The notes: a model not told the origin generated them from the sequence alone. DNA of 64,000 nucleotides from an uncultured Actinomycetes bacterium (GCA_963751065.1 CAVVTD010000008.1:4764-68763); one strand, 5' to 3'; shown: positions 31,569 to 41,873, counted from the stretch's first letter. Made by a program: numbers and translations.

Positions 31569-32612
31569 ATGTCGCTCAGGCGACCCCTCATCTCCATCGC
31601 CGCAGTCTCGCTGCTGGCGCTCGGTGCCGCCGCGTGCGGCGGCGAGACGAAGACGGTCACGGTCGGCGCATCGGAGCCGAGCGGCACCGCGGCGGCCGGC
31701 ACCGACGCGCCGGCGGGCAAGACGGTGAGCATCATCGCCAGCGTGCCGCCGACCGATCACGGATGGCTCGGCGCCATCTCCAAGAACGCCAAGGCCGCGG
31801 CGGACTCGCACGACGACGTGAAGTTCGAGCTGCTGCAGGCGGCCGACGCCGACTCGCAGGCCCAGCAGGTCGAGCAGGCGATCGCCAAGAAGCCCGACGT
31901 CCTCGTCGTGCTGCCCCAGGACGGCGCGGCGCTGACCCCGGTCGCCCAGAAGGCCGAGCGGGCCGGCATTCCCGTGGTGAACATCGATCGCCTGTTCTCC
32001 AAGCCCGACGCGGCGACCGCGACGGTGCTCGGCGACAACTACCAGATCGGCGTGCTGGCGGCCGGCTACATCTCCGAGCAGCTGAAGTGCAAGGGCAACG
32101 TCGTCGAGATCCAGGGCCTCGCCGGGATCTCGGTCACGACCGACCGCAGCAAGGGCTTCTCCGACGAGCTCAAGAAGCGCTGCCCGGGCGGCGGCGTGAA
32201 GATCGTCGCCAAGCAGCCGGGCGACTTCAACCCCGACACCGGCCTGAAAGTCATGGAGAACATCCTGCAGGCGCAGAAGAAGATCGACGCCGTCTACACG
32301 CACGACGACGACATGGCGCAGGGCGTCATCCAGGCGATCCGCAACGCCAATCGCGACGACGAGATGTTCCTCACCGGCGTGGGCGGCTCGCAGGACGCGA
32401 TGAAGCAGATCAAGGCCGGCGGCCTGTACCGCGCGACCTTCCTCTACAACCCGAACATGGCCGCGACCGCGGTGAACATGGCCCGGCTGATCGCCCTCGG
32501 CCAGGGCTTCGCCGAGCTCGTGCCGCCGGAGGTGCCGCGCCAGGTGGTCGTCCCGGCCGCCGTGGTCACGAAGGCGAACGTCGGGCAGTACGAGAAGTAC
32601 GCGTTCAACTAG
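31569..32612 (+). CDS. sugar ABC transporter substrate-binding lipoprotein (periplasmic binding protein type I)
   Basis: AGGAGG lies 6-7 nt upstream of the ATG. Lipobox LLALGAAAC. PBP blocks VVNIDR and DAVYTHDDDMAQG. Confidence 0.9.
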   Translation: MSLRRPLISIAAVSLLALGAAACGGETKTVTVGASEPSGTAAAGTDAPAGKTVSIIASVPPTDHGWLGAISKNAKAAADSHDDVKFELLQAADADSQAQQVEQAIAKKPDVLVVLPQDGAALTPVAQKAERAGIPVVNIDRLFSKPDAATATVLGDNYQIGVLAAGYISEQLKCKGNVVEIQGLAGISVTTDRSKGFSDELKKRCPGGGVKIVAKQPGDFNPDTGLKVMENILQAQKKIDAVYTHDDDMAQGVIQAIRNANRDDEMFLTGVGGSQDAMKQIKAGGLYRATFLYNPNMAATAVNMARLIALGQGFAELVPPEVPRQVVVPAAVVTKANVGQYEKYAFN

Positions 32613-32644
32613 GACTCGCCGGCCGACGCCCGCGCTGGGCTGGC

Positions 32645-32678
32645 CGCCCGCTGGATGCTCTACCGCATCCGGCGGGCG
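32645..32678. terminator. strong GC hairpin between convergent genes (candidate bidirectional terminator)
   Basis: CGCCCGCTGGATGC-TCTACC-GCATCCGGCGGGCG gives a 14-bp stem with one mismatch. It sits in the 81-nt gap between the stops at 32612 (+) and 32694 (-). There is no U-tract. Confidence 0.45.
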
Positions 32679-32693
32679 CGCGGGCGTGGCGGC

Positions 32694-35600
32694 TCACTCC
32701 ATCCCCATCGCGCAGTACTCCGCCATCGCCATCGCGGTCAGGTGCGGCCGCCGGATGACGCTCGTCGGGAAGACGCTCGCGTCGCAGGCGTAGAGGTTGC
32801 GGCAGCCGTGGACGCGAAGGTCGGGATCGACCACGCCGTCGTGCGGGTCGCGGCTCATCGGCGCGCCGCCCTGGGGCCGCGCGCTGATCGCCAGCCCCCG
32901 CGATGACGTCAGCGATGGCGCGAGCGCCTGCAGCTGCGCGACCGACGCGAACTCCTGGTACACCGGCGTGGCGGGCATGACGCGCCGCGCGCCCACGGCG
33001 AACAGGATCCGGCCGACGACCTCGAGGCGCTCGGTGAGCCGGGCGAGCTCCGGGCCGGTGAGGTGAAACTGCGTCGCCCGTCGCGACCAGTACGGCGAGC
33101 GCCCCGACCGGTCGGTGCCGAGATGTACCCGCATCGCGGCCATGTGGCGGTAGCGGCGCATGTTCTCCTCGTGGCGATCGAACGTGCCGGGCATCGCCAT
33201 CGACTGCAGCCAGACGGGAGACCAGGTGGACTCGACGACGAACTTCGGCTGGTCCGGGCAGAGGTCTGTCATGAGCTGCACGCCGACATGGGCATCGAGC
33301 TGCTCGTCGAAGTCCGCGGTCAGCGTCGAGGCGAGGTTGAACGAGAAGCTGCGCCCGCGGCTGATCGCGCTACGGCGCAGCAGATGGGCGCAGCCGAGCG
33401 CCCCCGCCGCGAGCACCACGGTCTTCGCGTGGATCGTCAGCTCGCGGCCGTCGCGCATGCGGCATGCGACGCCACGCGGCTCGCCGTCTTCCATGAGGAT
33501 TCGCTGGACCTCGCAGCCGGGCATGACCTCGAGGTGGTCGCCGAAGCGCCGCTGGCCCCACGGCAGGAGCGTGTCGAGCGCGGCGACGCTGCGGACTGAG
33601 AGGTCCGGCGGTGCCTCGTCGGGCCGGGTCAGCGTCCCGGTCGGCGTGTAGCCGAGCTGTTGGATGCCCTCCTGCAGCAGCACGGCGGCGCGGCTGAACG
33701 GGCCGGCGGGTCGGTCGATCCCGGGCAGCCAGGTGAGCACCTGCTGCCAGGATTCGTGGAACCGCTGCTCGTCGAGGCCGAACTCGTCGACCCACTGCTT
33801 GACCACCATCGGCGCGACCGACGACCACGTCGGGTAGCGCACCGGGCAGTCGCCGCCGAGCGTGGAAATGCGGTGCGCGCGCGCGTCGAGGTCGCCGAGC
33901 ACGTCCAGGCTGCCGTCGCCCAGCAGGTCGGGCAGCGTCTGCAGCGCGTCGCTCGTGTCGCGTGCCGGGTCGATCTCGGTCCCGCGTTCGAGGATGATCG
34001 TGCGCAATCCGCGCTCGGCGAGCCGGTAGGCGATGAGGGCTCCGGCGGCCCCGCTGCCGACCACCACGGCGTCGACCGTGTGACGGCCGTGGTCGTCCGG
34101 GCGCCGCTGCGTGATCGAGGGATGGGTCAGCATCGGCACGATGCCGCTGGGTGCAACGGCCGGCCCGGCGATCTGCTCGGCAACCTCGGGGTTGGCGAAG
34201 TAGCCCAGCGAGCAGAGCTGGTGCGCCGTGCGCTCGACGGATGGGCGTAGACGCCCCATCCCGCGCCAGCTGCCGTGCAGCAGCCGCCGGCGGTCCTCGA
34301 CGGCGATGAGCGAGAACGACGGGCGCGCGTGCAGGATCGGCAGCAGCGCCACGAGGTCGAGCGCAAGCCGGGCGCGCCGCAGCGACAGCTTGCTCGAGTC
34401 GTGCAGGTGGACGCCGTGCAGGTAGGCGTCCACGTTGTGCGCGACCCGTGCCGGCGGCACGAGCGAATCGGCGCCGTGGACCGTCTCGCTCAGCGCCTGC
34501 AGCGTACGGTGCTGGCCCGGCGTGAGCAGTTGCAGCCCGAAGCGCGTGCGGTAGGCCCGGCGCGAGAGTCGCCCGACCGCGACGACGATCGCGGCATCGA
34601 TCGCGAACCACAGCAACGCGAACGCGAGGATGTCCTCGGACGGCGAGGTGCCTGCTTCCCCCGACACGATGAGCGCGGCGACGGCGGCGGCCTCGACGAC
34701 CAGCACCCAGGTGAGCAGCTCGACGAGCGCGCCGAAGCGGCGCACGTCCGAGGCCGCGAGCGCGAACAGCGCGCCGAGCAGGATGCTGCGCGTGATGATC
34801 GCGACGGCCGTCGGTTCGAGCATGCCCTCGAGCGTCGGGATCAGCATGCCGCCGTCGATCGTCGTCGGGGCGATCAGCGGCACGAAGGCGAGTGCGAAGA
34901 CGACCGACAGCACCCGCAGCAGCCGGCTCAGCCGCTGCTCGTCCGGAACGGCCTCGAGCGCACGCGCGGCGTGCAGCGACTGCCAGGCGCGGCCGTCTTC
35001 GCCGGCCGACGGCGTGTGCTCCGATTCCGTTGAGGCCCCGTCGGGTGCGGCGGACGGCACCGGCGCCGGCTCGCCCGGCGACCCGGGCTGGGCCGGGTCC
35101 TGGGCAGTCAGCGTCGCCTCGATGTCCGTCAGCGCTCGCGCGACCGCGGCCGTGGGCAGGCTCGTCAGGTACGCGACCTGTGACGTGTCCGCGTCGGCGA
35201 GGACGTCGCGCTGGTCGCTGCCGGCGCCCGCCTCGCTGACGCGGTCGAGGTGGGCGAGCACCCGCTGCGTCGAAGGGTCCTGGAGCTGCTCGGCAACAGC
35301 GGACAGCGCCTCGTTGCTCGGGCTCGCGACGATGTTCCCGGCCGGGTGATAGGCGGTCCACAGGCCCTCGCGAAACTGCCCGCATGCGAGCGCTACGGCG
35401 GCCGATCCGTCGCGCAGGACGCCGTGTTGCTCGGTGTCGAGGCGCTGCACCCGCTCGAAGGCCGCGCGCAGCATCGGCGGCCACGACATCGCCTTCGCCT
35501 TGCGCGTGGCGATCCACGTGAGTGCTCGCACGTCCGGGTGCCCCGGCAGCACGGACTGCAGGCCGGCGACGAGGCCGTCGATCGGCTCGCCCTCACGAAG

Positions 35601-36416
35601 CAGCAGATGCGCCAGCAGGATCGCATTCATCGGCGCGCGCTCGATGTCGCCCGCCAGCGTGGCGAGGTCGGGCGTGCTCAGCGGCCGCGGCGGCGTGCGC
35701 AACCGCCACAGCAGGGCCTCGGTCGCCGATCCGGACGGCGCGTCGCTGTGCCATCCGTCGCGCATCCGAACGAGGTGCACGGACGCATCGGCGAACGCGG
35801 GGCCGCTCGGACCGTGGGAGACGAAGACGACGGTCTGCCAGCCGTCGCAGAGCCACAGCGGCTGCTCGAGCAGCGGCGAGAGATCCGCGGGGAGCTTTGC
35901 GCGCGGCCCGCGCAGCACGACGCCCCGCTTCGCGGCGACCGTGCCGACGATCCACTCGCCGCTCGGGTCGGCCGTCACGCTCAGCTCCAGCTCGGCGCCG
36001 TCGCGGATCACCGCCACGTCGTCGAACGTGGGCGCCCCGCCGTCGTCGCCGAGCTTGCGGATCATGAGCACCAGGCCGCTCTGCGCCCCGCTCGCGGTGA
36101 GCGTCGCGCTCGCGTGCTCGGCAGCCTCCGCGTGGCGGCGATCGGTGCTGCGCGCGCCACGCACGGGCGCGGCGCACGACATCGAGAGGTCGATAGCGTC
36201 GCGCACGTACTCGTCGCCGGCCTCGAGCGCGACGAGCTGTCGCTCGACGCTGTCGCCCGCCCGGTACTCGAGCTGGTACACGCCGGGGTCGAGCTCGGCG
36301 TCGAGCCCGCCAAGCCCCGAGACGACGGTCGACCGCGAGCGGTCGGCGACGCTGAGCTCCGTCCACGGCGAGTTGGCGCGAAGCGTGATGCGGGTGGTTG
36401 CCGCGGGAGAGAGCAC
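32694..36416 (-). CDS. 1240-aa multidomain membrane protein: unassigned N-domain(s), Pro-rich linker, ~4 TM helices, Gluconate_2-dh3-like segment, C-terminal GMC family FAD oxidoreductase
   Basis: GTG 36416 is preceded by AGGGA. Hydrophobic segments lie at about aa 499-615. The dinucleotide fold is VDAVVVGSGAAGALIAYRLAERG. The GMC C-terminal block is VVDPDLRVHGCRNLYACDASVFPT. Confidence 0.8.
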   Translation of the reverse strand: MLSPAATTRITLRANSPWTELSVADRSRSTVVSGLGGLDAELDPGVYQLEYRAGDSVERQLVALEAGDEYVRDAIDLSMSCAAPVRGARSTDRRHAEAAEHASATLTASGAQSGLVLMIRKLGDDGGAPTFDDVAVIRDGAELELSVTADPSGEWIVGTVAAKRGVVLRGPRAKLPADLSPLLEQPLWLCDGWQTVVFVSHGPSGPAFADASVHLVRMRDGWHSDAPSGSATEALLWRLRTPPRPLSTPDLATLAGDIERAPMNAILLAHLLLREGEPIDGLVAGLQSVLPGHPDVRALTWIATRKAKAMSWPPMLRAAFERVQRLDTEQHGVLRDGSAAVALACGQFREGLWTAYHPAGNIVASPSNEALSAVAEQLQDPSTQRVLAHLDRVSEAGAGSDQRDVLADADTSQVAYLTSLPTAAVARALTDIEATLTAQDPAQPGSPGEPAPVPSAAPDGASTESEHTPSAGEDGRAWQSLHAARALEAVPDEQRLSRLLRVLSVVFALAFVPLIAPTTIDGGMLIPTLEGMLEPTAVAIITRSILLGALFALAASDVRRFGALVELLTWVLVVEAAAVAALIVSGEAGTSPSEDILAFALLWFAIDAAIVVAVGRLSRRAYRTRFGLQLLTPGQHRTLQALSETVHGADSLVPPARVAHNVDAYLHGVHLHDSSKLSLRRARLALDLVALLPILHARPSFSLIAVEDRRRLLHGSWRGMGRLRPSVERTAHQLCSLGYFANPEVAEQIAGPAVAPSGIVPMLTHPSITQRRPDDHGRHTVDAVVVGSGAAGALIAYRLAERGLRTIILERGTEIDPARDTSDALQTLPDLLGDGSLDVLGDLDARAHRISTLGGDCPVRYPTWSSVAPMVVKQWVDEFGLDEQRFHESWQQVLTWLPGIDRPAGPFSRAAVLLQEGIQQLGYTPTGTLTRPDEAPPDLSVRSVAALDTLLPWGQRRFGDHLEVMPGCEVQRILMEDGEPRGVACRMRDGRELTIHAKTVVLAAGALGCAHLLRRSAISRGRSFSFNLASTLTADFDEQLDAHVGVQLMTDLCPDQPKFVVESTWSPVWLQSMAMPGTFDRHEENMRRYRHMAAMRVHLGTDRSGRSPYWSRRATQFHLTGPELARLTERLEVVGRILFAVGARRVMPATPVYQEFASVAQLQALAPSLTSSRGLAISARPQGGAPMSRDPHDGVVDPDLRVHGCRNLYACDASVFPTSVIRRPHLTAMAMAEYCAMGME

Positions 36417-36423
36417 AGCGTCC

Positions 36424-37488
36424 CTATCCGGCGACCTGGAGCGCGAGCTCGCAGTCGCGGGCGATCACGCGAAACGCCCCGCCGTTCGCGAACGCCTGGC
36501 CGCCGTTGACCGGCCCGATCGTGTAGTCGGCCTCCGGAAGGTCGAGCGTCAACGGCCCCTGCGCCGGGTCCCAGGTCCGGACGTCCTCGTGGTCGCGCTG
36601 GAGGTGCACCTGGCCCGCATATCCGTCCGGGAAGCGGATCGTCATCTTCCGGCTGAGTCGCGGCAGGCGCCCGAGCCCGGGTCGCACGACCATCGGATCG
36701 CGCAGGTTGACGGGGAAGTCCGGCGTCTGCTCGTAGGCCTGTCCGGCGGTCATCTCGTGGACGTGATCGCCGATGTAGGTGCTGAGCTTGTCGGTACGGA
36801 TCTCCCCGGTCTCGGGGTCGGCCGCGCCGCCGCGCAGGCCGTCGACGAGCGCCGCGGTGAAATAGCCGCGAAAGCGGTCCGGCTGCTCGTACGCCGCTTC
36901 GGCGTACGACGTCGCGAACGCCATGACGAGCTTCGCGTCGCCGTGGCGCCGGCGCGGCTGGCCGAGACGCAGCCCCAGAGACGGCGCGAGCGGGCGCTGG
37001 TCGCGGCAGCAGTCGGCCAGCAGCAGCACCTCCTTGAACAGCCCCGCCGACCGATACCAGGCGTGCACGGCGGAGAACTCGATCATGTCCCAGAAGTTCT
37101 CCTTCGGGTACGCGTTGGCGCACAGCAGTGCGCCGGCTCCGCCGCTCGGCGCCACACCGTGCCCGGAGGCGTAGACGTACAGCCGCGAGTGCTCCCAGAT
37201 CGACCGGTCGGCATTCATCGCGGCCGTGAAGGTCTCGTTGATCTGGCCGAGCCTGCTCTCGACGTCGACCGACGTCGGTCGCGCGTCCCAGTTCGTGCGA
37301 AACCCCTCCTCCTCCACGGGCTTGGCGTGGACGCTGTGGATGTTGCGCTCTGGGACACGCCCGCCCTGCTCGTCGACGAGCCACGCATGGAAGGCCTCGG
37401 CGTCCTTGCGCGGCCCGGCCAGATCGGACAGGCCGGGGTAGCGGTTGATACCGATGACGACCGCGTAGTGGTGCTCCGTGTCCATCAT
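36424..37488 (-). CDS. caspase-like peptidase (clan CD, C14 family-like) with beta-rich C-terminal module
   Basis: Blocks seen: YAVVIGINRYPGLSDLAGPRKDAEAF, YVYASGHG (His codon 37159-37161), LLLADCC (Cys codons about 37006-37011). The start ATG shares 1 nt with the upstream stop. Confidence 0.75.
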   Translation of the reverse strand: MMDTEHHYAVVIGINRYPGLSDLAGPRKDAEAFHAWLVDEQGGRVPERNIHSVHAKPVEEEGFRTNWDARPTSVDVESRLGQINETFTAAMNADRSIWEHSRLYVYASGHGVAPSGGAGALLCANAYPKENFWDMIEFSAVHAWYRSAGLFKEVLLLADCCRDQRPLAPSLGLRLGQPRRRHGDAKLVMAFATSYAEAAYEQPDRFRGYFTAALVDGLRGGAADPETGEIRTDKLSTYIGDHVHEMTAGQAYEQTPDFPVNLRDPMVVRPGLGRLPRLSRKMTIRFPDGYAGQVHLQRDHEDVRTWDPAQGPLTLDLPEADYTIGPVNGGQAFANGGAFRVIARDCELALQVAG

Positions 37489-38969
37489 CACTCCTCGGCG
37501 ATGAACACCTTCAGGCTGGCCTGCACCTGGGGATCCTCGTCGAACGCGCCGTGCTGCTCGGCGCCCGCGGAGAGGCCGGGGCCGCCGTCGATCGGCGACC
37601 ACACGATCTGGTCGCCCGCAGCGGCGAGGTAGGCGCGCACGGCGGTCAGCTCGGCGAGCTCGGACGCCGGGCCCTCGACCCAGCGCTGCAGGCCGACGAC
37701 CGGCTTGCCCGCCTCGCTGTCGCCCTCGGCGTCGCGCTCGAGCAGGCCCGAGACGAAGTACAGCAGCGAGTGCGGGTACACGAGCGGGACGAGCCGGTCG
37801 CGGCGCTCGGCGGCGTCGTTCATCGTGAACATCCGGAAGCGCTCCCAGAGGTGGTCCCAGCCGTCGACGACCGCGGCGAAATCCGTGAACGTGCAGGCGG
37901 GCGCGAGGAACACGATGCGGCGGAAGCGGAAGTCCGCGGGCAGTCCGCCGCCGGCGCCGCGCTCGCGCTCGACGGTCGCCATGAGGTTGTTGATGAACAC
38001 CGCACCGGTGCTGTGGCCGACCGCCGTGATGTCCGGCACCGGCCCGGCGTTGATCGCGTTCGTCAGCGCCGTAAGAAAGCGCGCGCCGCCGCGCGGCGGG
38101 CCGCCGTTGGCGACCGGCTGGAACGTGTCGAGCGTCTCGCGCTTCATCGCCGTCCAGATCGCGGTCACCGCGGGGCCGAGATAGAACTCGCGCAGGAGCT
38201 CCTCGACGACGGTGGCGTACAGGCCGTGGTCGCGGCCCTGGCGGTAGCGCCGCACGACCGCGCGGACCACTCGGGTCGCCTTGCGCGCCAGGACGGCCGC
38301 CTCGAAGATGCCCTTCGCTCCGTCGCCGCCGGTGTCGCCGCGCAGGTCGGCGACCGCGTCGGGGTCGAGCAGCGTCGGTTTTCGCGTGCCGTCGCCGGCA
38401 AATGCGCCCTTCGCGCCGCCGGCGTCCGCGCCGACCGCGGTGCTCACGGCGGCCAGCAGCGGCTCGTCGTTGGCGATGTCGAACTCGAACTCGTCGAGCT
38501 CCTCGATCGTGAGCTCGGGGAGCTCGCCGGCGGGCACGAGCTCGTCGAAGGGCACCTCGTGGCGCTCGAGGCGGTCGAGCTGGTCGTCGACCTCGCGCGG
38601 CGAGAGCGGCCCCGCGCCGGCGCTCTTCGCGCCGCTGGAGTCCGTCATGCGCCCGCCGAGATGGCCGGTGGTGGTCCGCAGCAGCCGGTTGAAGATCTCG
38701 TCCTTGGCGATCTCCGGGAGGTTGCGCAGGATCGACGGCACGTCGCTGCGCCAGATGAAGAAGATCGGGTAGGCGCCCGCCTCGGCGTAGACGGGCAGGA
38801 GGTTCTCGGCCACGCGGCGGCCGCTCTTTTCCGACACGAGGCCGCCGTGGAAGTGCACGACGCCCTTGCCACTGGCGACAAGCGCCCGGACCATCTCGTC
38901 AACCCGCTCGGGCGCGGTGACGAGCGCCCCGTCCTTGCCCGTGACGATGATGTGATCGTCCAGGTTCAT
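37488..38969 (-). CDS. alpha/beta hydrolase-like protein with a long acidic/helical insert
   Basis: VVHFHGG (oxyanion-hole type) and AVGHSTGA (GxSxG, Ser codon 38010-38012) are separated by about 270 aa. The C-terminus has EQHGAFD. Start taken at ATG 38969; GTG 39005 is possible. Confidence 0.65.
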   Translation of the reverse strand: MNLDDHIIVTGKDGALVTAPERVDEMVRALVASGKGVVHFHGGLVSEKSGRRVAENLLPVYAEAGAYPIFFIWRSDVPSILRNLPEIAKDEIFNRLLRTTTGHLGGRMTDSSGAKSAGAGPLSPREVDDQLDRLERHEVPFDELVPAGELPELTIEELDEFEFDIANDEPLLAAVSTAVGADAGGAKGAFAGDGTRKPTLLDPDAVADLRGDTGGDGAKGIFEAAVLARKATRVVRAVVRRYRQGRDHGLYATVVEELLREFYLGPAVTAIWTAMKRETLDTFQPVANGGPPRGGARFLTALTNAINAGPVPDITAVGHSTGAVFINNLMATVERERGAGGGLPADFRFRRIVFLAPACTFTDFAAVVDGWDHLWERFRMFTMNDAAERRDRLVPLVYPHSLLYFVSGLLERDAEGDSEAGKPVVGLQRWVEGPASELAELTAVRAYLAAAGDQIVWSPIDGGPGLSAGAEQHGAFDEDPQVQASLKVFIAEE

Positions 38970-39025: not shown

Positions 39026-40432
39026 CTAGCGCGTCGCGCCGGTGATGCGAAAGCCGTCGGCGCGCAGCGCGGGGCAGACGACGCCGTGCGCGAAGCGGCG
39101 GCCGTAGAACTCGCCCTCGCTGACGAGCTGGCGCTCCTCTGTGAGCGCCTGGGTCGCGCTGAGCAGCCGCAGGACGGAGTCGGTGAAGCGCACGTCCTTC
39201 AGCGGCCGGGCGACGGCGCCGTCCTCGATGAGGAACGTGCCCTCGCGCGTCATGCCGGTGAGCAGGGTCTCCTTGTCGCGCACCGTGTTGACGTACCACA
39301 GGCGCGTCACGTAGATGCCGCGCTCGATCGGGGCGACGAGCTCGTCGATGCCGGCGGCGTCGCCGCCGGCGAGCACGAGGTTCGTGGGGGAGGGGCCGTA
39401 GGGCGAGCCGCCGGGCTGCGTGGCGTGGCCGGTGGAGCGCGTCCCGTCGCCGGCGAGCGCCGCGGAGCGCAGGTCGTGCACGACGCCGGTGGCGACGCCG
39501 CCCTCGATGAGGCCGACGCGCTGCTTCGGCGTGCCCTCGAAGTCGAAGCGGTGCGGCAGCGTGTGGGCGTCGGCGGCGTCGTCGCGCAGGTCGATCGACG
39601 GGGCGGCGACGGTTGTGCCGAGGCGCCCGCTCAGCGCGCCGCGGCCCTCGGCGTGGGTGAGGCCGTTGTGGGCGAGCGCGCCGAGGAAGTCGAGCAGGAC
39701 GCCCACCGCGGCCGGCTCGAGGACGACCGGGTACTCGCCGGGCCCGAGCTCGGCGAGCGGCTCGCCGCCGACCTTGCGCGCGGCGCGGCGGGCCACCTCG
39801 CCGGGGTCGATCGCGCCGGCGGCGGTTGCCGTCGCCGAGGCGAAGCCGCTGCGCCCGTCGGGAGCGCGGCAGATGACCTTCATGAACGCATCGGTCACCT
39901 CCTCGTCGAGCCGCAGGCCGCTCGTCGCCGCGATCGCGGTGCGCACGGCGCCGGCGGTCCAGACACCGAACGCCTCGAGGCCATGCTCGGCGGCGACGCC
40001 GAACGCCCGGCCCAGGGCAGTGCCCGCGCCGGCCGGGTCGAGTCGGGCGGTCTCGGCGTCGAAGCCGTCGGCCCAGGTGTGCGGCGCGGCCCTGCCGTCG
40101 ATGTGGGCGAGGCCGGGGTGGTTGCCCTCGCCCGAGCGCGCCGACGCGCGGGCGGCGGCGTCGGCGCGGCGCGCCGTGTCGCGCAGCGCGCCGTCGTCGA
40201 GGCGGTTCGTCGAGGCGAGCGCACTGTGCCCGTCGCGCACGACGAGGATCTCGACCGCGGTGTCGTCGATCTCGGTCGCCTGGGTCGGCGCCGAGCGCGC
40301 GAAGCGCGACATGAGCGAGCGCTCGCGCATGACCGTGACCTGCAGCTCGGCGCCGGTGCCGGTGCCGGTGTCGGCCAGCGCGAGGACGCGCTCGGCGATC
40401 TCCGGCGGGGAGCGCAGCGCGGTGGTGCTCAC
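39026..40432 (-). CDS. pmbA: TldE/PmbA family metalloprotease partner
   Basis: The 468-aa sequence has typical PmbA C-terminal blocks (GYPVVLEP, FDxEG, GIYVTRLWY) and no HExxxH. It starts 4 nt after the tldD stop. Confidence 0.8.
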   Translation of the reverse strand: MSTTALRSPPEIAERVLALADTGTGTGAELQVTVMRERSLMSRFARSAPTQATEIDDTAVEILVVRDGHSALASTNRLDDGALRDTARRADAAARASARSGEGNHPGLAHIDGRAAPHTWADGFDAETARLDPAGAGTALGRAFGVAAEHGLEAFGVWTAGAVRTAIAATSGLRLDEEVTDAFMKVICRAPDGRSGFASATATAAGAIDPGEVARRAARKVGGEPLAELGPGEYPVVLEPAAVGVLLDFLGALAHNGLTHAEGRGALSGRLGTTVAAPSIDLRDDAADAHTLPHRFDFEGTPKQRVGLIEGGVATGVVHDLRSAALAGDGTRSTGHATQPGGSPYGPSPTNLVLAGGDAAGIDELVAPIERGIYVTRLWYVNTVRDKETLLTGMTREGTFLIEDGAVARPLKDVRFTDSVLRLLSATQALTEERQLVSEGEFYGRRFAHGVVCPALRADGFRITGATR

Positions 40433-40436
40433 GTGC

Positions 40437-41873
40437 TCATGCCACCCCGACCTCGACGTCGCGAAAGCGCGCGGGCGCGGTGCCGTGCGAGACGCGCATG
40501 ACCTGACCGGGCTCGCCCTTGCCGCAGTTGCCGACGCCCCACAGCCGCCACGCCGGCGCCGAGCAGACGGCGTCCAGCCCGCTCCAGAACGTCGGCGTCA
40601 CGCCGGCGTAGGAGGCGTTGCGCAGCAGGCGCCCCAGCTCGCCGCCGCGGATCTCGCGCGCGACCTCGGTCCCGAACTGGAAGTGCAGGCGGCGGTCGTC
40701 GATCGACCACGAGCGGTTGGTCTCCAGGTACAGGCCGCTGTCGGTGTCGGCGACGAGGTCGGCGAGCGAGCCGGCGTCGCCGGGCTCGATGGAGACGTTC
40801 GTCATGCGCACGATCGGCTGCCGCGCGAAGCCGTCCGCGCGCGCGCAGCCGCCGGATCGCTCGAGCCCGACCGCCGCCGCCGAGCCGCGATCGGAGAGCG
40901 CGGCGCGCAACACGCCGTGTTCGATGAGCGGCGTACGCGCGGCGGCGACGCCCTCGTCGTCCCAGCCGAACGTGCCCAGCCCGCCGGGCAGCGTCGCGTC
41001 GGCGGTGATGTTCAGCCGCTCGGAGCCGTAGCGCAGCGTGCCGAGGTCGCCAGGGCCGACCCAGCTCGTGCCCGCGTAGGAGGCCTCCATGAGCAGCATC
41101 CGATCGAGCTCGAGGGCGTGGCCAATCGACTCGTGGATCTGCAGCGCGAGCTGCTCGCCGCCGAGGATCACGGTCATCCGCCCGGCCGGGCACTCGGGCG
41201 CGCTGAGCAGCTCGACCGCCTCCGCGGCGATGCGCGGCGCATGGCCGGCGAGGTCGAAGGCGAGCACGTGCTCCCAGCCGGCGCAGGCCGCCGAGCCGCC
41301 ATGCGCGCCGGGGTAGGAGCGCACCTGCAGCTCGTCGCCGTCGACGGCGATCGCGGCAACCGACGCGCCGCACTCGACGCGCTCCTGGGTGCAGGCCGCG
41401 CCGTCGCTGGAGGCGAAGGCAGTGCGCACCCGGCGGCTCGCGCACGACGCGTCGGAGCGCACGACGCGCGGGTCCCCGCGCAGCGCCTCCTCGGCGTCGC
41501 AGAGCAGCTCGAGCTTGTCCTCGAGCGAGACGTCGAAGGGATCCTGTACGTGTTCGCCGCGCCAGTGGCCTGTGGCGGCCGGCACCGGCGCCAGGGGGCC
41601 CATCGGCGCGGCGGGCTGGCTCTCGGCGATGGCCAGCGCGCGGGCCAGCGCGCGCTCGGCGCCGGCGCGCGTGGTCTCGCGCGTCGCGGCGAAGCCCCAG
41701 CCGCCGCCGGCGCGCACGCGCACGCCGATCCCGTCGGCGGACGTGCTGTCGACGTGGTCGACGCGTCCGTTGCGAACGAGGATGTCCTCGGCGTCGGTGG
41801 CGACGTGGCGGGCCTCGGCGTACGTGCAGCGCGACGGCGCCGCGGCGAGGACCTCCGTCAGCAGGTCGAGCAT
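40437..41873 (-). CDS. tldD: TldD family metalloprotease
   Basis: Blocks seen: IHESIGHALE (HExxxH), GWDDEGV, GLYLETNRSWSIDD. Start at ATG 41873 (MLDLLTEVL). Confidence 0.85.
   Translation of the reverse strand: MLDLLTEVLAAAPSRCTYAEARHVATDAEDILVRNGRVDHVDSTSADGIGVRVRAGGGWGFAATRETTRAGAERALARALAIAESQPAAPMGPLAPVPAATGHWRGEHVQDPFDVSLEDKLELLCDAEEALRGDPRVVRSDASCASRRVRTAFASSDGAACTQERVECGASVAAIAVDGDELQVRSYPGAHGGSAACAGWEHVLAFDLAGHAPRIAAEAVELLSAPECPAGRMTVILGGEQLALQIHESIGHALELDRMLLMEASYAGTSWVGPGDLGTLRYGSERLNITADATLPGGLGTFGWDDEGVAAARTPLIEHGVLRAALSDRGSAAAVGLERSGGCARADGFARQPIVRMTNVSIEPGDAGSLADLVADTDSGLYLETNRSWSIDDRRLHFQFGTEVAREIRGGELGRLLRNASYAGVTPTFWSGLDAVCSAPAWRLWGVGNCGKGEPGQVMRVSHGTAPARFRDVEVGVA

Follow-up and report, generated by a model that had tools for sequence, protein, structure and literature searches.

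Why should a flavoprotein of the GMC oxidoreductase family sit in the membrane, lack its canonical catalytic residues, and be joined to a large N-terminal domain that is elsewhere encoded next to caspase-like proteases? The question is raised by gene C, which encodes a 1240-residue fusion protein on the minus strand of a 64,000-nucleotide stretch of DNA from an uncultured Actinomycetes bacterium (GCA_963751065.1 CAVVTD010000008.1:4764-68763; this whole stretch is called the window below). Its product consists of an N-terminal domain of 440 residues (N-dom), a linker, a four-helix membrane anchor, a helical middle domain, and a GMC flavoprotein domain. An earlier note on this DNA viewed the protein in isolation, and so missed its genomic context, and proposed that its flavin adenine dinucleotide (FAD) domain has an altered chemistry or is noncatalytic; that part of the interpretation stands, while the His that it placed at the second catalytic position does not. 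Because N-dom proves to be the constant partner of a stand-alone caspase-like protease, the reading shifts from an odd oxidoreductase to a sensor or adaptor of a protease module. On balance, we think that gene C probably encodes the sensor/adaptor arm of a caspase–hydrolase death or defence module.

A recurrent cassette of hydrolase, caspase-like protease and partner protein

Gene C is the last of three genes that follow one another on the minus strand in the order A, B, C. The stop and start codons of genes A and B overlap as TGATG, and gene C starts 7 nucleotides past the stop codon of gene B. The product of gene B matches the Pfam model Peptidase_C14 (E = 2.8e-9) and the PADLOC caspase model, and it resembles the NCBIfam family "caspase, EACC1-associated type" weakly, at 59 bits, which is below the cut-off. 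The His and Cys of the caspase dyad are invariant in 28/28 cassette caspases. The product of gene A finds no match in Pfam, NCBIfam, PADLOC or a PDB sequence search; an alignment of 10 cassette homologues reveals an invariant H-x-H-G-G motif (HFHGG, residues 39–43), a GHSTG elbow (Ser320) and an H-G-x-F-D motif (His473), which give it the character of an alpha/beta-hydrolase-like protein. Gene A also holds two conserved sites at which a basic residue precedes a small one, G-x-[KR]-[GSA] at residues 113–116 (K115/S116) and [KR]-G at residues 219–220 (K219/G220), and these sites bracket a variable acidic insert.

The arrangement is not peculiar to the window. A search of one genome per species, with a pattern derived from 10 of the closer N-dom sequences, returned 29 N-dom loci in the Actinomycetota, Chloroflexota, Planctomycetota (including Brocadia), Acidobacteriota, Verrucomicrobiota, Myxococcota and Pseudomonadota. 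For 26 of these the contig includes DNA upstream of the N-dom gene, and in 24 of the 26 a codirectional caspase-like gene lies directly upstream of it; a caspase-like gene holds the same position in both homologue contigs, L001 and L002. The complete A–B–C order is repeated beside P0003, a full-length relative of gene C, and a caspase gene also precedes P0004, a more distant one. A homologue of gene A adjoins the N-dom gene in 16 of the 29 loci, mostly upstream and, in three Planctomycetota loci, downstream; a permuted order of caspase, N-dom and hydrolase is seen in the Planctomycetota loci L014, L028 and L029. Pairwise distances co-vary between the three proteins, with r = 0.83 for caspase and N-dom, 0.97 for caspase and hydrolase, and 0.95 for the third pair, values for which the species tree is not controlled. 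Judged by these comparisons, the set of hydrolase, caspase-like protease and partner protein is a cassette that recurs in many bacterial phyla. Its distribution is patchy, since no N-dom was detected in any of 40 sampled relatives, 24 of which belong to the same genus.

These data bear on the possibility of a chance neighbourhood, in which gene C would be a dehydrogenase-like membrane protein that has a housekeeping role and an unrelated extension at its N terminus, functionally independent of the caspase and hydrolase genes beside it. It is true that the three genes lie outside a recognised defence island and are flanked by tldD/pmbA and sugar-transport genes. However, chance association would have to account for the adjacency of caspase and N-dom genes in at least seven phyla, for gene ends that lie so close together or overlap, and for the loss of the catalytic pair described below, and we consider it very unlikely.

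N-dom as the constant partner of the caspase

The earlier note had been unable to assign the first 440 residues, which it described as beta-rich and then helical, and both statements hold. N-dom has no match in Pfam or NCBIfam, and a PDB sequence search with an N-dom profile returned nothing meaningful. An AlphaFold2 model, built from a 25-sequence alignment that was assembled from the genome loci, is of high confidence (predicted local distance difference test [pLDDT] 91.3, predicted TM-score [pTM] 0.90) and consists of beta-sandwiches at residues 8–75 and 113–217 followed by a helical domain at residues 227–439. Foldseek finds no global analogue of this model in the PDB (query TM-score ≤0.15); the first sandwich alone resembles small transthyretin- or carboxypeptidase-regulatory-like domains.

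The domain does occur by itself in other proteins, as the earlier note had proposed to check. A HMMER scan gathered 773 representative proteins at E ≤ 1e-3, most of which are stand-alone N-dom proteins of 450–520 residues. Where C-terminal extensions are present they are diverse, and Pfam identifies among them GMC, NNH7-NACHT, NACHT, TIR, LuxR helix-turn-helix, Lsr2, HATPase, GAF and Ig-like ASH/HYDIN domains. In Dactylosporangium (L011, 6995–10315) N-dom is fused to a TIR domain and a STAND NTPase, and in Actinoplanes (L020, 7004–10780) to an NNH7-NACHT module, in each case directly after a cassette-type caspase gene. N-dom stands N-terminal to NACHT and TIR-STAND modules and is encoded next to a caspase gene; its most likely role is to bind or organise the caspase, with the variable C-terminal parts acting as the input.

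The diversity of these fusions also bears on a different role for gene C, in which the protein would be a substrate of the caspase: N-dom would be an inhibitory or recognition prodomain, and a cut in the linker would free a membrane-damaging transmembrane (TM)–GMC part, comparable to EACC1 or gasdermin-type activation. The linker between N-dom and the membrane module is indeed flexible and poorly conserved, protease–effector modules often act by shedding an autoinhibitory part, and N-dom proteins at loci that lack gene A tend toward additional C-terminal extensions. However, no conserved basic-Gly site is seen in the linker among three full-length relatives, most N-dom proteins stand alone and are thus free of any effector, and the NACHT and TIR-STAND fusions put N-dom in the place of an adaptor rather than of a prodomain. 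Moreover, the locus already has a dedicated, putative zymogen effector in gene A. We regard the pro-effector role as decidedly unlikely, and continue with N-dom as the probable caspase-organising part of a sensor or adaptor.

Reading frame and architecture of gene C

A protein of so unusual a composition could in principle be an artefact of assembly or of a frameshift that joins separate genes, and the source assembly, with 22 contigs, is estimated to be 87% complete. The G+C content of gene C at codon positions 1, 2 and 3 is 0.74, 0.52 and 0.93, and third-position G+C ranges from 0.87 to 0.98 over all blocks of 60 codons, including those at every domain junction; because it is even throughout, gene C is a single reading frame, with no signature of a frameshift or of read-through. 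In addition, full-length relatives come from independent assemblies, P0003 with 80% identity (1272 residues) and P0004 with 42% identity (1250 residues), and the former has the same gene order. Further clusters with the fusion (P0012, P0013 and P0021) were found in a search of 1.8 billion representative proteins, such that, counting clusters at 50% identity, at least five others, all from other samples, share it. With both the even third-position G+C content and the independent relatives in hand, a missed stop or frameshift is excluded for practical purposes, and the chance of an artefact is negligible. The single 1240-residue open reading frame reported earlier is thus real.

The layout given in the earlier note has likewise been borne out, from the Pro-rich linker and the approximately four hydrophobic helices to the C-terminal GMC block. 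The linker is rich in Pro, Ala and Ser and shares just 45% identity with that of P0003. By hydropathy, residues 495–620 contain four hydrophobic segments, with centres at residues 505–517, 542–549, 569–581 and 602–609. Three basic residues precede TM1, two lie in the loop between TM2 and TM3, and four follow TM4 (RLSRRAYRTRF), while the other loops contain none; these two remaining loops are acidic in character. Because of this distribution, the predicted topology of gene C is N-in/C-in, which would leave its two large soluble parts cytoplasmic. Analysis of hydropathy and charge detects no signal peptide. An AlphaFold2 model of residues 485–1240, from an 8-sequence alignment (pLDDT 70), comprises a helical bundle, the helical middle domain, and the GMC fold.

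The earlier note had related the middle domain to the Gluconate_2-dh3 family, and this claim holds at the level of profiles and fails at that of direct matches. HMMER detects no PF13618 (Gluconate_2-dh3) match in the gene C protein at E ≤ 0.1, nor in five relatives at E ≤ 5. Among 31 related genomes searched, PF13618 regions above the cut-off include four that immediately precede a GMC domain in one polypeptide and one that is a 179-residue protein beside a GMC gene. When a middle-domain profile of 128 sequences was compared by hhalign with PF13618-positive regions from the same order, taken where they adjoin or are fused to GMC domains, the two aligned over 116 columns with a probability of 96.1% (E = 2.8e-9), in an alignment that takes in the motif L-[ST]-x-x-Q-x-x-T-L-x-A. 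The relation was judged by hhalign, as Foldseek results for the C-terminal model are dominated by GMC chains. Instead of forming a separate small subunit with a twin-arginine translocation (Tat) signal, the domain lies within the polypeptide, after four TM helices with an Arg-rich cytoplasmic exit; it is thus an internal, predicted cytoplasmic domain and not a Tat-escort subunit. Within the order, the loci L034, L035, L037 and L040 encode single polypeptides of ~640–765 residues in which a PF13618 region above the cut-off directly precedes the GMC domain; these have no TM helices and bear the N-terminal motif L-S-x-x-Q-R-x-T-L-x-A-I-C-D-T.

Loss of the canonical catalytic pair

The C-terminal block is recognised by both Pfam models of the family, GMC_oxred_C (PF05199; 64.5 bits, cut-off 24.6) and GMC_oxred_N (PF00732; 35.9 bits, cut-off 23), whose matches span residues 782–1232 and are the only Pfam matches in the protein. 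Foldseek recovers the two-domain GMC fold, with GMC structures at E-values of 1.9e-14 to 1e-12, among which the top matches are the fructose dehydrogenase large subunit, a bacterial pyranose 2-oxidase, choline oxidase, and the alpha subunit of the Burkholderia FAD-glucose dehydrogenase. The GxGxxG motif of the beta-alpha-beta unit and the acidic residue that follows it are both present (VVVGSGAAGALIAYRLAERGLRTIILE), and the family shows no variation at G787, G789, G792 or E810.

The catalytic positions were assigned through HMMER alignments to solved GMC structures. The catalytic His of the H-P-x-G-[TG] motif, which is H466 in choline oxidase and H511 in formate oxidase, is replaced by Arg1180, so that the alignment proposed earlier as a check confirms the Arg that had been read there by eye and does not place a His opposite the formate oxidase residue. 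At the second position a gap-free alignment sets S-V-I-R-R-P-H-L-T of gene C against H-V-T-V-N-P-N-I-T of choline oxidase, and Asn510 of the latter therefore corresponds to Arg1223; the residues mutated in the R554K and R554A entries of formate oxidase fall in the same column. The earlier note had assigned this position to the His of RRPHLTA, which is His1225, two residues downstream.

The remodelling extends beyond the catalytic pair. The GMC signature 1, G-G-[ST]-[ST]-x-x-N, is degenerate, reading LGGDCPVRY in gene C where the catalytic relatives have VGGTTVVNN. Along with GG-TT-NN, gene C has lost the WFNPPATQ block, and the CxxGYCNIGC loop has been deleted. In all, 233 alignment columns reach a conservation of 95% or more among the canonical, catalytic members, and gene C keeps only 114 of them. 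What it keeps, namely GSGxxG, Glu810, AAG, DAS-FP and PQGG, consists of elements for adenosine diphosphate (ADP) binding and of the framework. The suggestion of an altered or noncatalytic FAD domain is thereby strengthened, as both catalytic residues are replaced, the signature is degenerate, and a loop is missing. These sequence features suggest that the domain probably still binds an ADP-containing cofactor, which we infer to be FAD, and that it would be incapable of canonical hydride transfer, which makes it more likely to be a receptor or scaffold than an oxidase.

A single fusion within a membrane-anchored flavoprotein family

The TM, middle and GMC domains of gene C have close counterparts without N-dom. 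Approximately 120 relatives of roughly 770–800 residues with the TM/helical/GMC layout were collected, mostly from soil metagenomes, where they are labelled "choline dehydrogenase-like flavoprotein"; members P0005–P0008 and P0161–P0279 are common in soil Actinomycetota metagenomes. This canonical family is collinear with residues 490–1240 of gene C at 30–34% identity. The first catalytic position is His and the second Asn, each in 121 of 131 aligned family sequences, and the exceptions are essentially the fused proteins. In these, the first position reads R, R, R, H, R, R, D and the second R, R, A, A, N, A, D, such that no protein fused to N-dom retains both canonical residues.

A maximum-likelihood tree groups six of the seven N-dom fusions in a single clade nested within the canonical family (Shimodaira–Hasegawa-like approximate likelihood ratio test [SH-aLRT] 98); the seventh, P0084, sits on a long branch whose place in the tree is not settled. 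Terminal branches of the more divergent members of the fused clade measure 0.6–1.6, versus a median of 0.19, and P0001 and P0003 are short tips behind an internal branch of 0.88. The six-protein clade and its long branches thus point to a single fusion of N-dom to a TM-GMC protein, followed by accelerated change. The GMC domain is nevertheless not decaying but under purifying selection: relative to P0003 it shows 89% identity and a ratio of nonsynonymous to synonymous substitution rates (dN/dS) of 0.18, the lowest of all domains, versus 0.30 for N-dom, values that are indicative only because the extreme third-position G+C content compresses dS. A comparison with P0004 was saturated and was set aside.

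In the parent family the genomic context is different. The canonical proteins of ~780 residues are not beside caspase genes. Alpha/beta-hydrolase or lipase-like genes (Abhydrolase_1, Lipase_2, Tle3-like) follow such relatives in L003 (6012–8206) and L004 (9783–11715), and L003 also holds a gene for a DAO-type flavoprotein near the GMC relative; such neighbours suggest that the parent family might act on a lipid-related substrate. In P0007 (L004, 6699–9605; 968 residues) the four-helix membrane module is tandemly duplicated ahead of the GMC part. Furthermore, three metagenomic TM/helical/GMC proteins that keep the His/Asn pair (P0225, P0252 and P0261) are fused C-terminally to an nSTAND1 NTPase (PF20703). 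By the tree, such fusions have at least two origins; the TM-GMC module therefore appears to have been recruited to STAND-type proteins at least twice. We found no prior description in the literature of a catalytically intact membrane GMC enzyme on a STAND switch.

The family data allow a further possibility to be weighed, in which gene C remains a flavoenzyme of altered chemistry: the Arg/Arg site would transform an anionic substrate, such as a carboxylate, a fatty acid or a phospholipid head group, and the protein would be either a metabolic enzyme or an effector directed at the membrane, with N-dom a mere tether to the caspase system. The retention of the ADP-binding motifs under strong purifying selection is consistent with an enzyme, as is the lipase-like neighbourhood of the canonical relatives; moreover, the active formate oxidase has Arg554 exactly where Arg1223 sits, and Arg1222 is kept in 5 of 6 fused proteins. 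However, no member of the fused clade holds both canonical residues, and the second position varies among R, A, N and D while the first is His once, which is unlike a new, fixed catalytic pair. In addition, gene C no longer has the flavin-proximal GG-TT-NN signature or the WFNPPATQ block, and it lacks a loop that is conserved in the canonical members. We therefore consider an altered chemistry unlikely, and a pseudo-enzyme in the service of the caspase module the better reading of gene C.

Features and flanks of the cassette

The coordinates of the features are collected in Table 1. Directly past the stop codon of gene C lies a GC-rich hairpin, which separates the convergent ends of gene C and of a gene for a sugar-binding protein (end at 32612). 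It has no U-tract and may serve as a bidirectional terminator. A scan of the operon for promoters and terminators was uninformative in DNA of 72% G+C. On the other side, a codirectional tldD/pmbA pair lies directly upstream of the cassette (39026–41873, minus strand). We rejected this pair as part of a conserved five-gene unit: homologues occur solely in the near-identical L001 and L005 and in 0/27 other loci, and the pair is beside the cassette by local synteny.

Table 1. Positions of the cassette genes, domains and key residues in the window
Feature	Position	Strand	Basis
Gene C, 1240-aa fusion protein	32694..36416	-	GTG start 36416, stop 32694-32696; open reading frame list, third-position G+C, full-length relatives
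N-dom, caspase-partner domain, aa 1-440	35097..36416	-	AlphaFold2 model, family search, genome loci
Pro/Ala/Ser-rich linker, aa 441-489	34950..35096	-	Sequence; length varies among relatives
Four-helix membrane anchor, aa 490-626	34539..34949	-	Kyte-Doolittle peaks, Arg distribution, helices in AlphaFold2 model
Helical middle domain, aa 627-775, Gluconate_2-dh3-like	34092..34538	-	hhalign; no direct Pfam match
GMC flavoprotein domain, degenerate active site, aa 776-1240	32697..34091	-	Pfam, Foldseek, dN/dS
GSGAAG dinucleotide-binding motif (G787, G789, G792)	34041..34058	-	Invariant in all family members
Glu810, end of beta-2	33987-33989	-	Invariant in family
Arg1180 at canonical catalytic His position	32877..32879	-	Aligned to formate oxidase HPTGT His
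Arg1223 at canonical second catalytic His/Asn position	32748..32750	-	Aligned to choline oxidase Asn510, formate oxidase Arg554
Gene B, stand-alone caspase-like C14 peptidase, 354 aa	36424..37488	-	Pfam, NCBIfam, PADLOC
Gene B His110	37159-37161	-	Invariant dyad residue
Gene B Cys160	37009-37011	-	Invariant dyad residue
Gene A, 493-aa alpha/beta-hydrolase-like protein	37488..38969	-	Alignment of 10 cassette homologues
GC-rich hairpin past gene C stop, between convergent genes	32618..32693	-	RNA fold -58.6 kcal/mol, z = -4.8 vs shuffles

Discussion

Protease-gated death effectors have recently been recognised as a major theme of bacterial immunity, and those described have their sensors fused to the protease. 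In one published set of conflict systems the caspase domain always has a neighbouring alpha/beta-hydrolase gene (Kaur, Burroughs, Iyer & Aravind 2020, eLife e52696, PMC7159879). LcHydrolase of Lysobacter capsici has two conserved R|G sites at which LcCaspase cuts it, and loss of the middle fragment makes LcHydrolase a death effector; such modules have diverse sensors, which are fused to the protease (Evans et al. 2025, bioRxiv 10.1101/2025.11.14.688446). The A–B pair fits this pattern at the sequence level: a caspase-like Cys protease is encoded beside an alpha/beta-hydrolase-like gene with which it is translationally coupled, the hydrolase has two conserved basic-Gly/Ser sites around a putatively removable segment, and the distribution is patchy over several phyla. 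Gene A differs in its size, 493 residues versus about 300, with an insert of ~100 residues. The locus also differs in having a third gene, that of the N-dom protein, as a constant partner, and in that this partner, in the present lineage, is joined to a membrane GMC module whose active site has been dismantled. The word "oxidoreductase" does not occur in the text of Evans et al., nor do "GMC" or "FAD" in that of Kaur et al. 2020, and a full-text search of the literature found no paper that links GMC oxidoreductases with bacterial caspases.

Gene C can also be set beside the membrane FAD dehydrogenase complexes, as the Gluconobacter fructose dehydrogenase (PDB 7w2j/8xcm) and the gamma–alpha complex of the Burkholderia cepacia FAD-glucose dehydrogenase (8grj) supply the GMC domains at Foldseek ranks 1–3 and 13, and the domain that precedes its GMC part is related to their small-subunit family. 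In contrast to these complexes, gene C is a single polypeptide, predicted to be cytoplasmic and devoid of a Tat signal, has four TM helices of its own as an anchor where the complexes rely on a cytochrome subunit, and lacks the catalytic His/Asn pair. The flavoproteins of ~770–800 residues differ from it in keeping His/Asn, GG-TT-NN and CxxGYCNIGC, and in having lipase-like hydrolases and a DAO-type flavoprotein, but no caspase, as neighbours. Unusual active sites are known from other GMC-fold proteins, of which hydroxynitrile lyase, with its non-redox use of FAD, illustrates that the fold can bind FAD without oxidoreductase chemistry. Formate oxidase (His511/Arg554) shares with gene C an Arg at the second catalytic position, and FAD-dependent hydroxynitrile lyases occur among the fold matches of gene C; however, both retain the first His, where gene C has Arg together with a degenerate flavin-proximal signature.

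With respect to N-dom, the nearest parallel is with the CARD/Death-like adaptors and the effector-associated domain (EAD) principle (Kaur et al. 2021, eLife e70394), in that N-dom is N-terminal in NACHT and TIR-STAND proteins and adjacent to a caspase. In contrast to the ~90-residue, six-helix Death fold, N-dom has 440 residues arranged in two beta-sandwiches and a helical domain, has no PDB fold match, and is not fused to the caspase itself.

These comparisons suggest a mechanism for the module. Gene A would encode a latent alpha/beta-hydrolase, gene B the caspase and gene C their partner, from genes that appear to be translationally coupled or nearly so. N-dom, to judge from its position in other genomes, would take the place of the caspase-recruiting adaptors of apoptosome-like machines. 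In this lineage a single event joined it, via the Pro-rich linker, to an intact membrane-anchored flavoprotein of the canonical type, and the active site of the GMC domain was remodelled afterwards, with His becoming Arg1180, Asn becoming Arg1223, GG-TT-NN being lost and the Cys-rich loop deleted. With both of its soluble arms predicted to be in the cytoplasm, the membrane-bound pseudo-oxidoreductase would sense a membrane, flavin/redox or anionic-ligand signal and relay it via N-dom to the caspase. The caspase may then cut the hydrolase zymogen at its two conserved Lys/Arg-Gly/Ser sites, with removal of the acidic insert, and the cut hydrolase would be the freed, lipase-like death or defence effector. 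A more specific version can be offered tentatively, as possible rather than probable: N-dom would be an undescribed caspase-activation platform of a new fold, CARD/apoptosome-like in its role, and the captured flavoprotein would be a pseudo-enzyme receptor. This dead oxidoreductase would read the status of the membrane, of redox/flavin or of anionic lipids, such as envelope damage in phage attack, and pass it to a caspase-driven, lipase-like effector.

Several points weigh against a sensor or adaptor role for gene C. The link between N-dom and the caspase is drawn from adjacency and co-variation, both of which could stem from co-inheritance alone. Known modules fuse the sensor to the protease, whereas the gene B caspase is a stand-alone protein of 354 residues. 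PADLOC-DB 2.0 recognises neither gene A nor gene C, gene B being matched by a generic caspase model alone, and no flanking defence genes or marks of mobile elements are seen next to the cassette. Moreover, formate oxidase, an active GMC enzyme, also has Arg at the second position, which leaves a total loss of catalysis unproven, and the model of the C-terminal part is just moderate in confidence and poor at residues 812–865, the site of the FAD signature.

The locus has a three-part layout, consisting of a stand-alone caspase, a constant partner of 440 residues, and interchangeable putative inputs that include NACHT, TIR-STAND, Ig-like and membrane flavoprotein modules. What is new in it is a GMC pseudo-enzyme arm on a recently described protease–effector logic, with a partner domain for which there is neither a Pfam model nor a solved analogue. 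To our knowledge, pseudo-enzyme sensors have rarely been documented among prokaryotic conflict systems. The GMC module is a clear example of an enzyme family that, once recruited, lost its catalytic pair yet remained under purifying selection. If this is true, then the locus offers a testable path from membrane or redox state to the activation of a bacterial caspase, and N-dom would be a new adaptor fold that is open to structural study.

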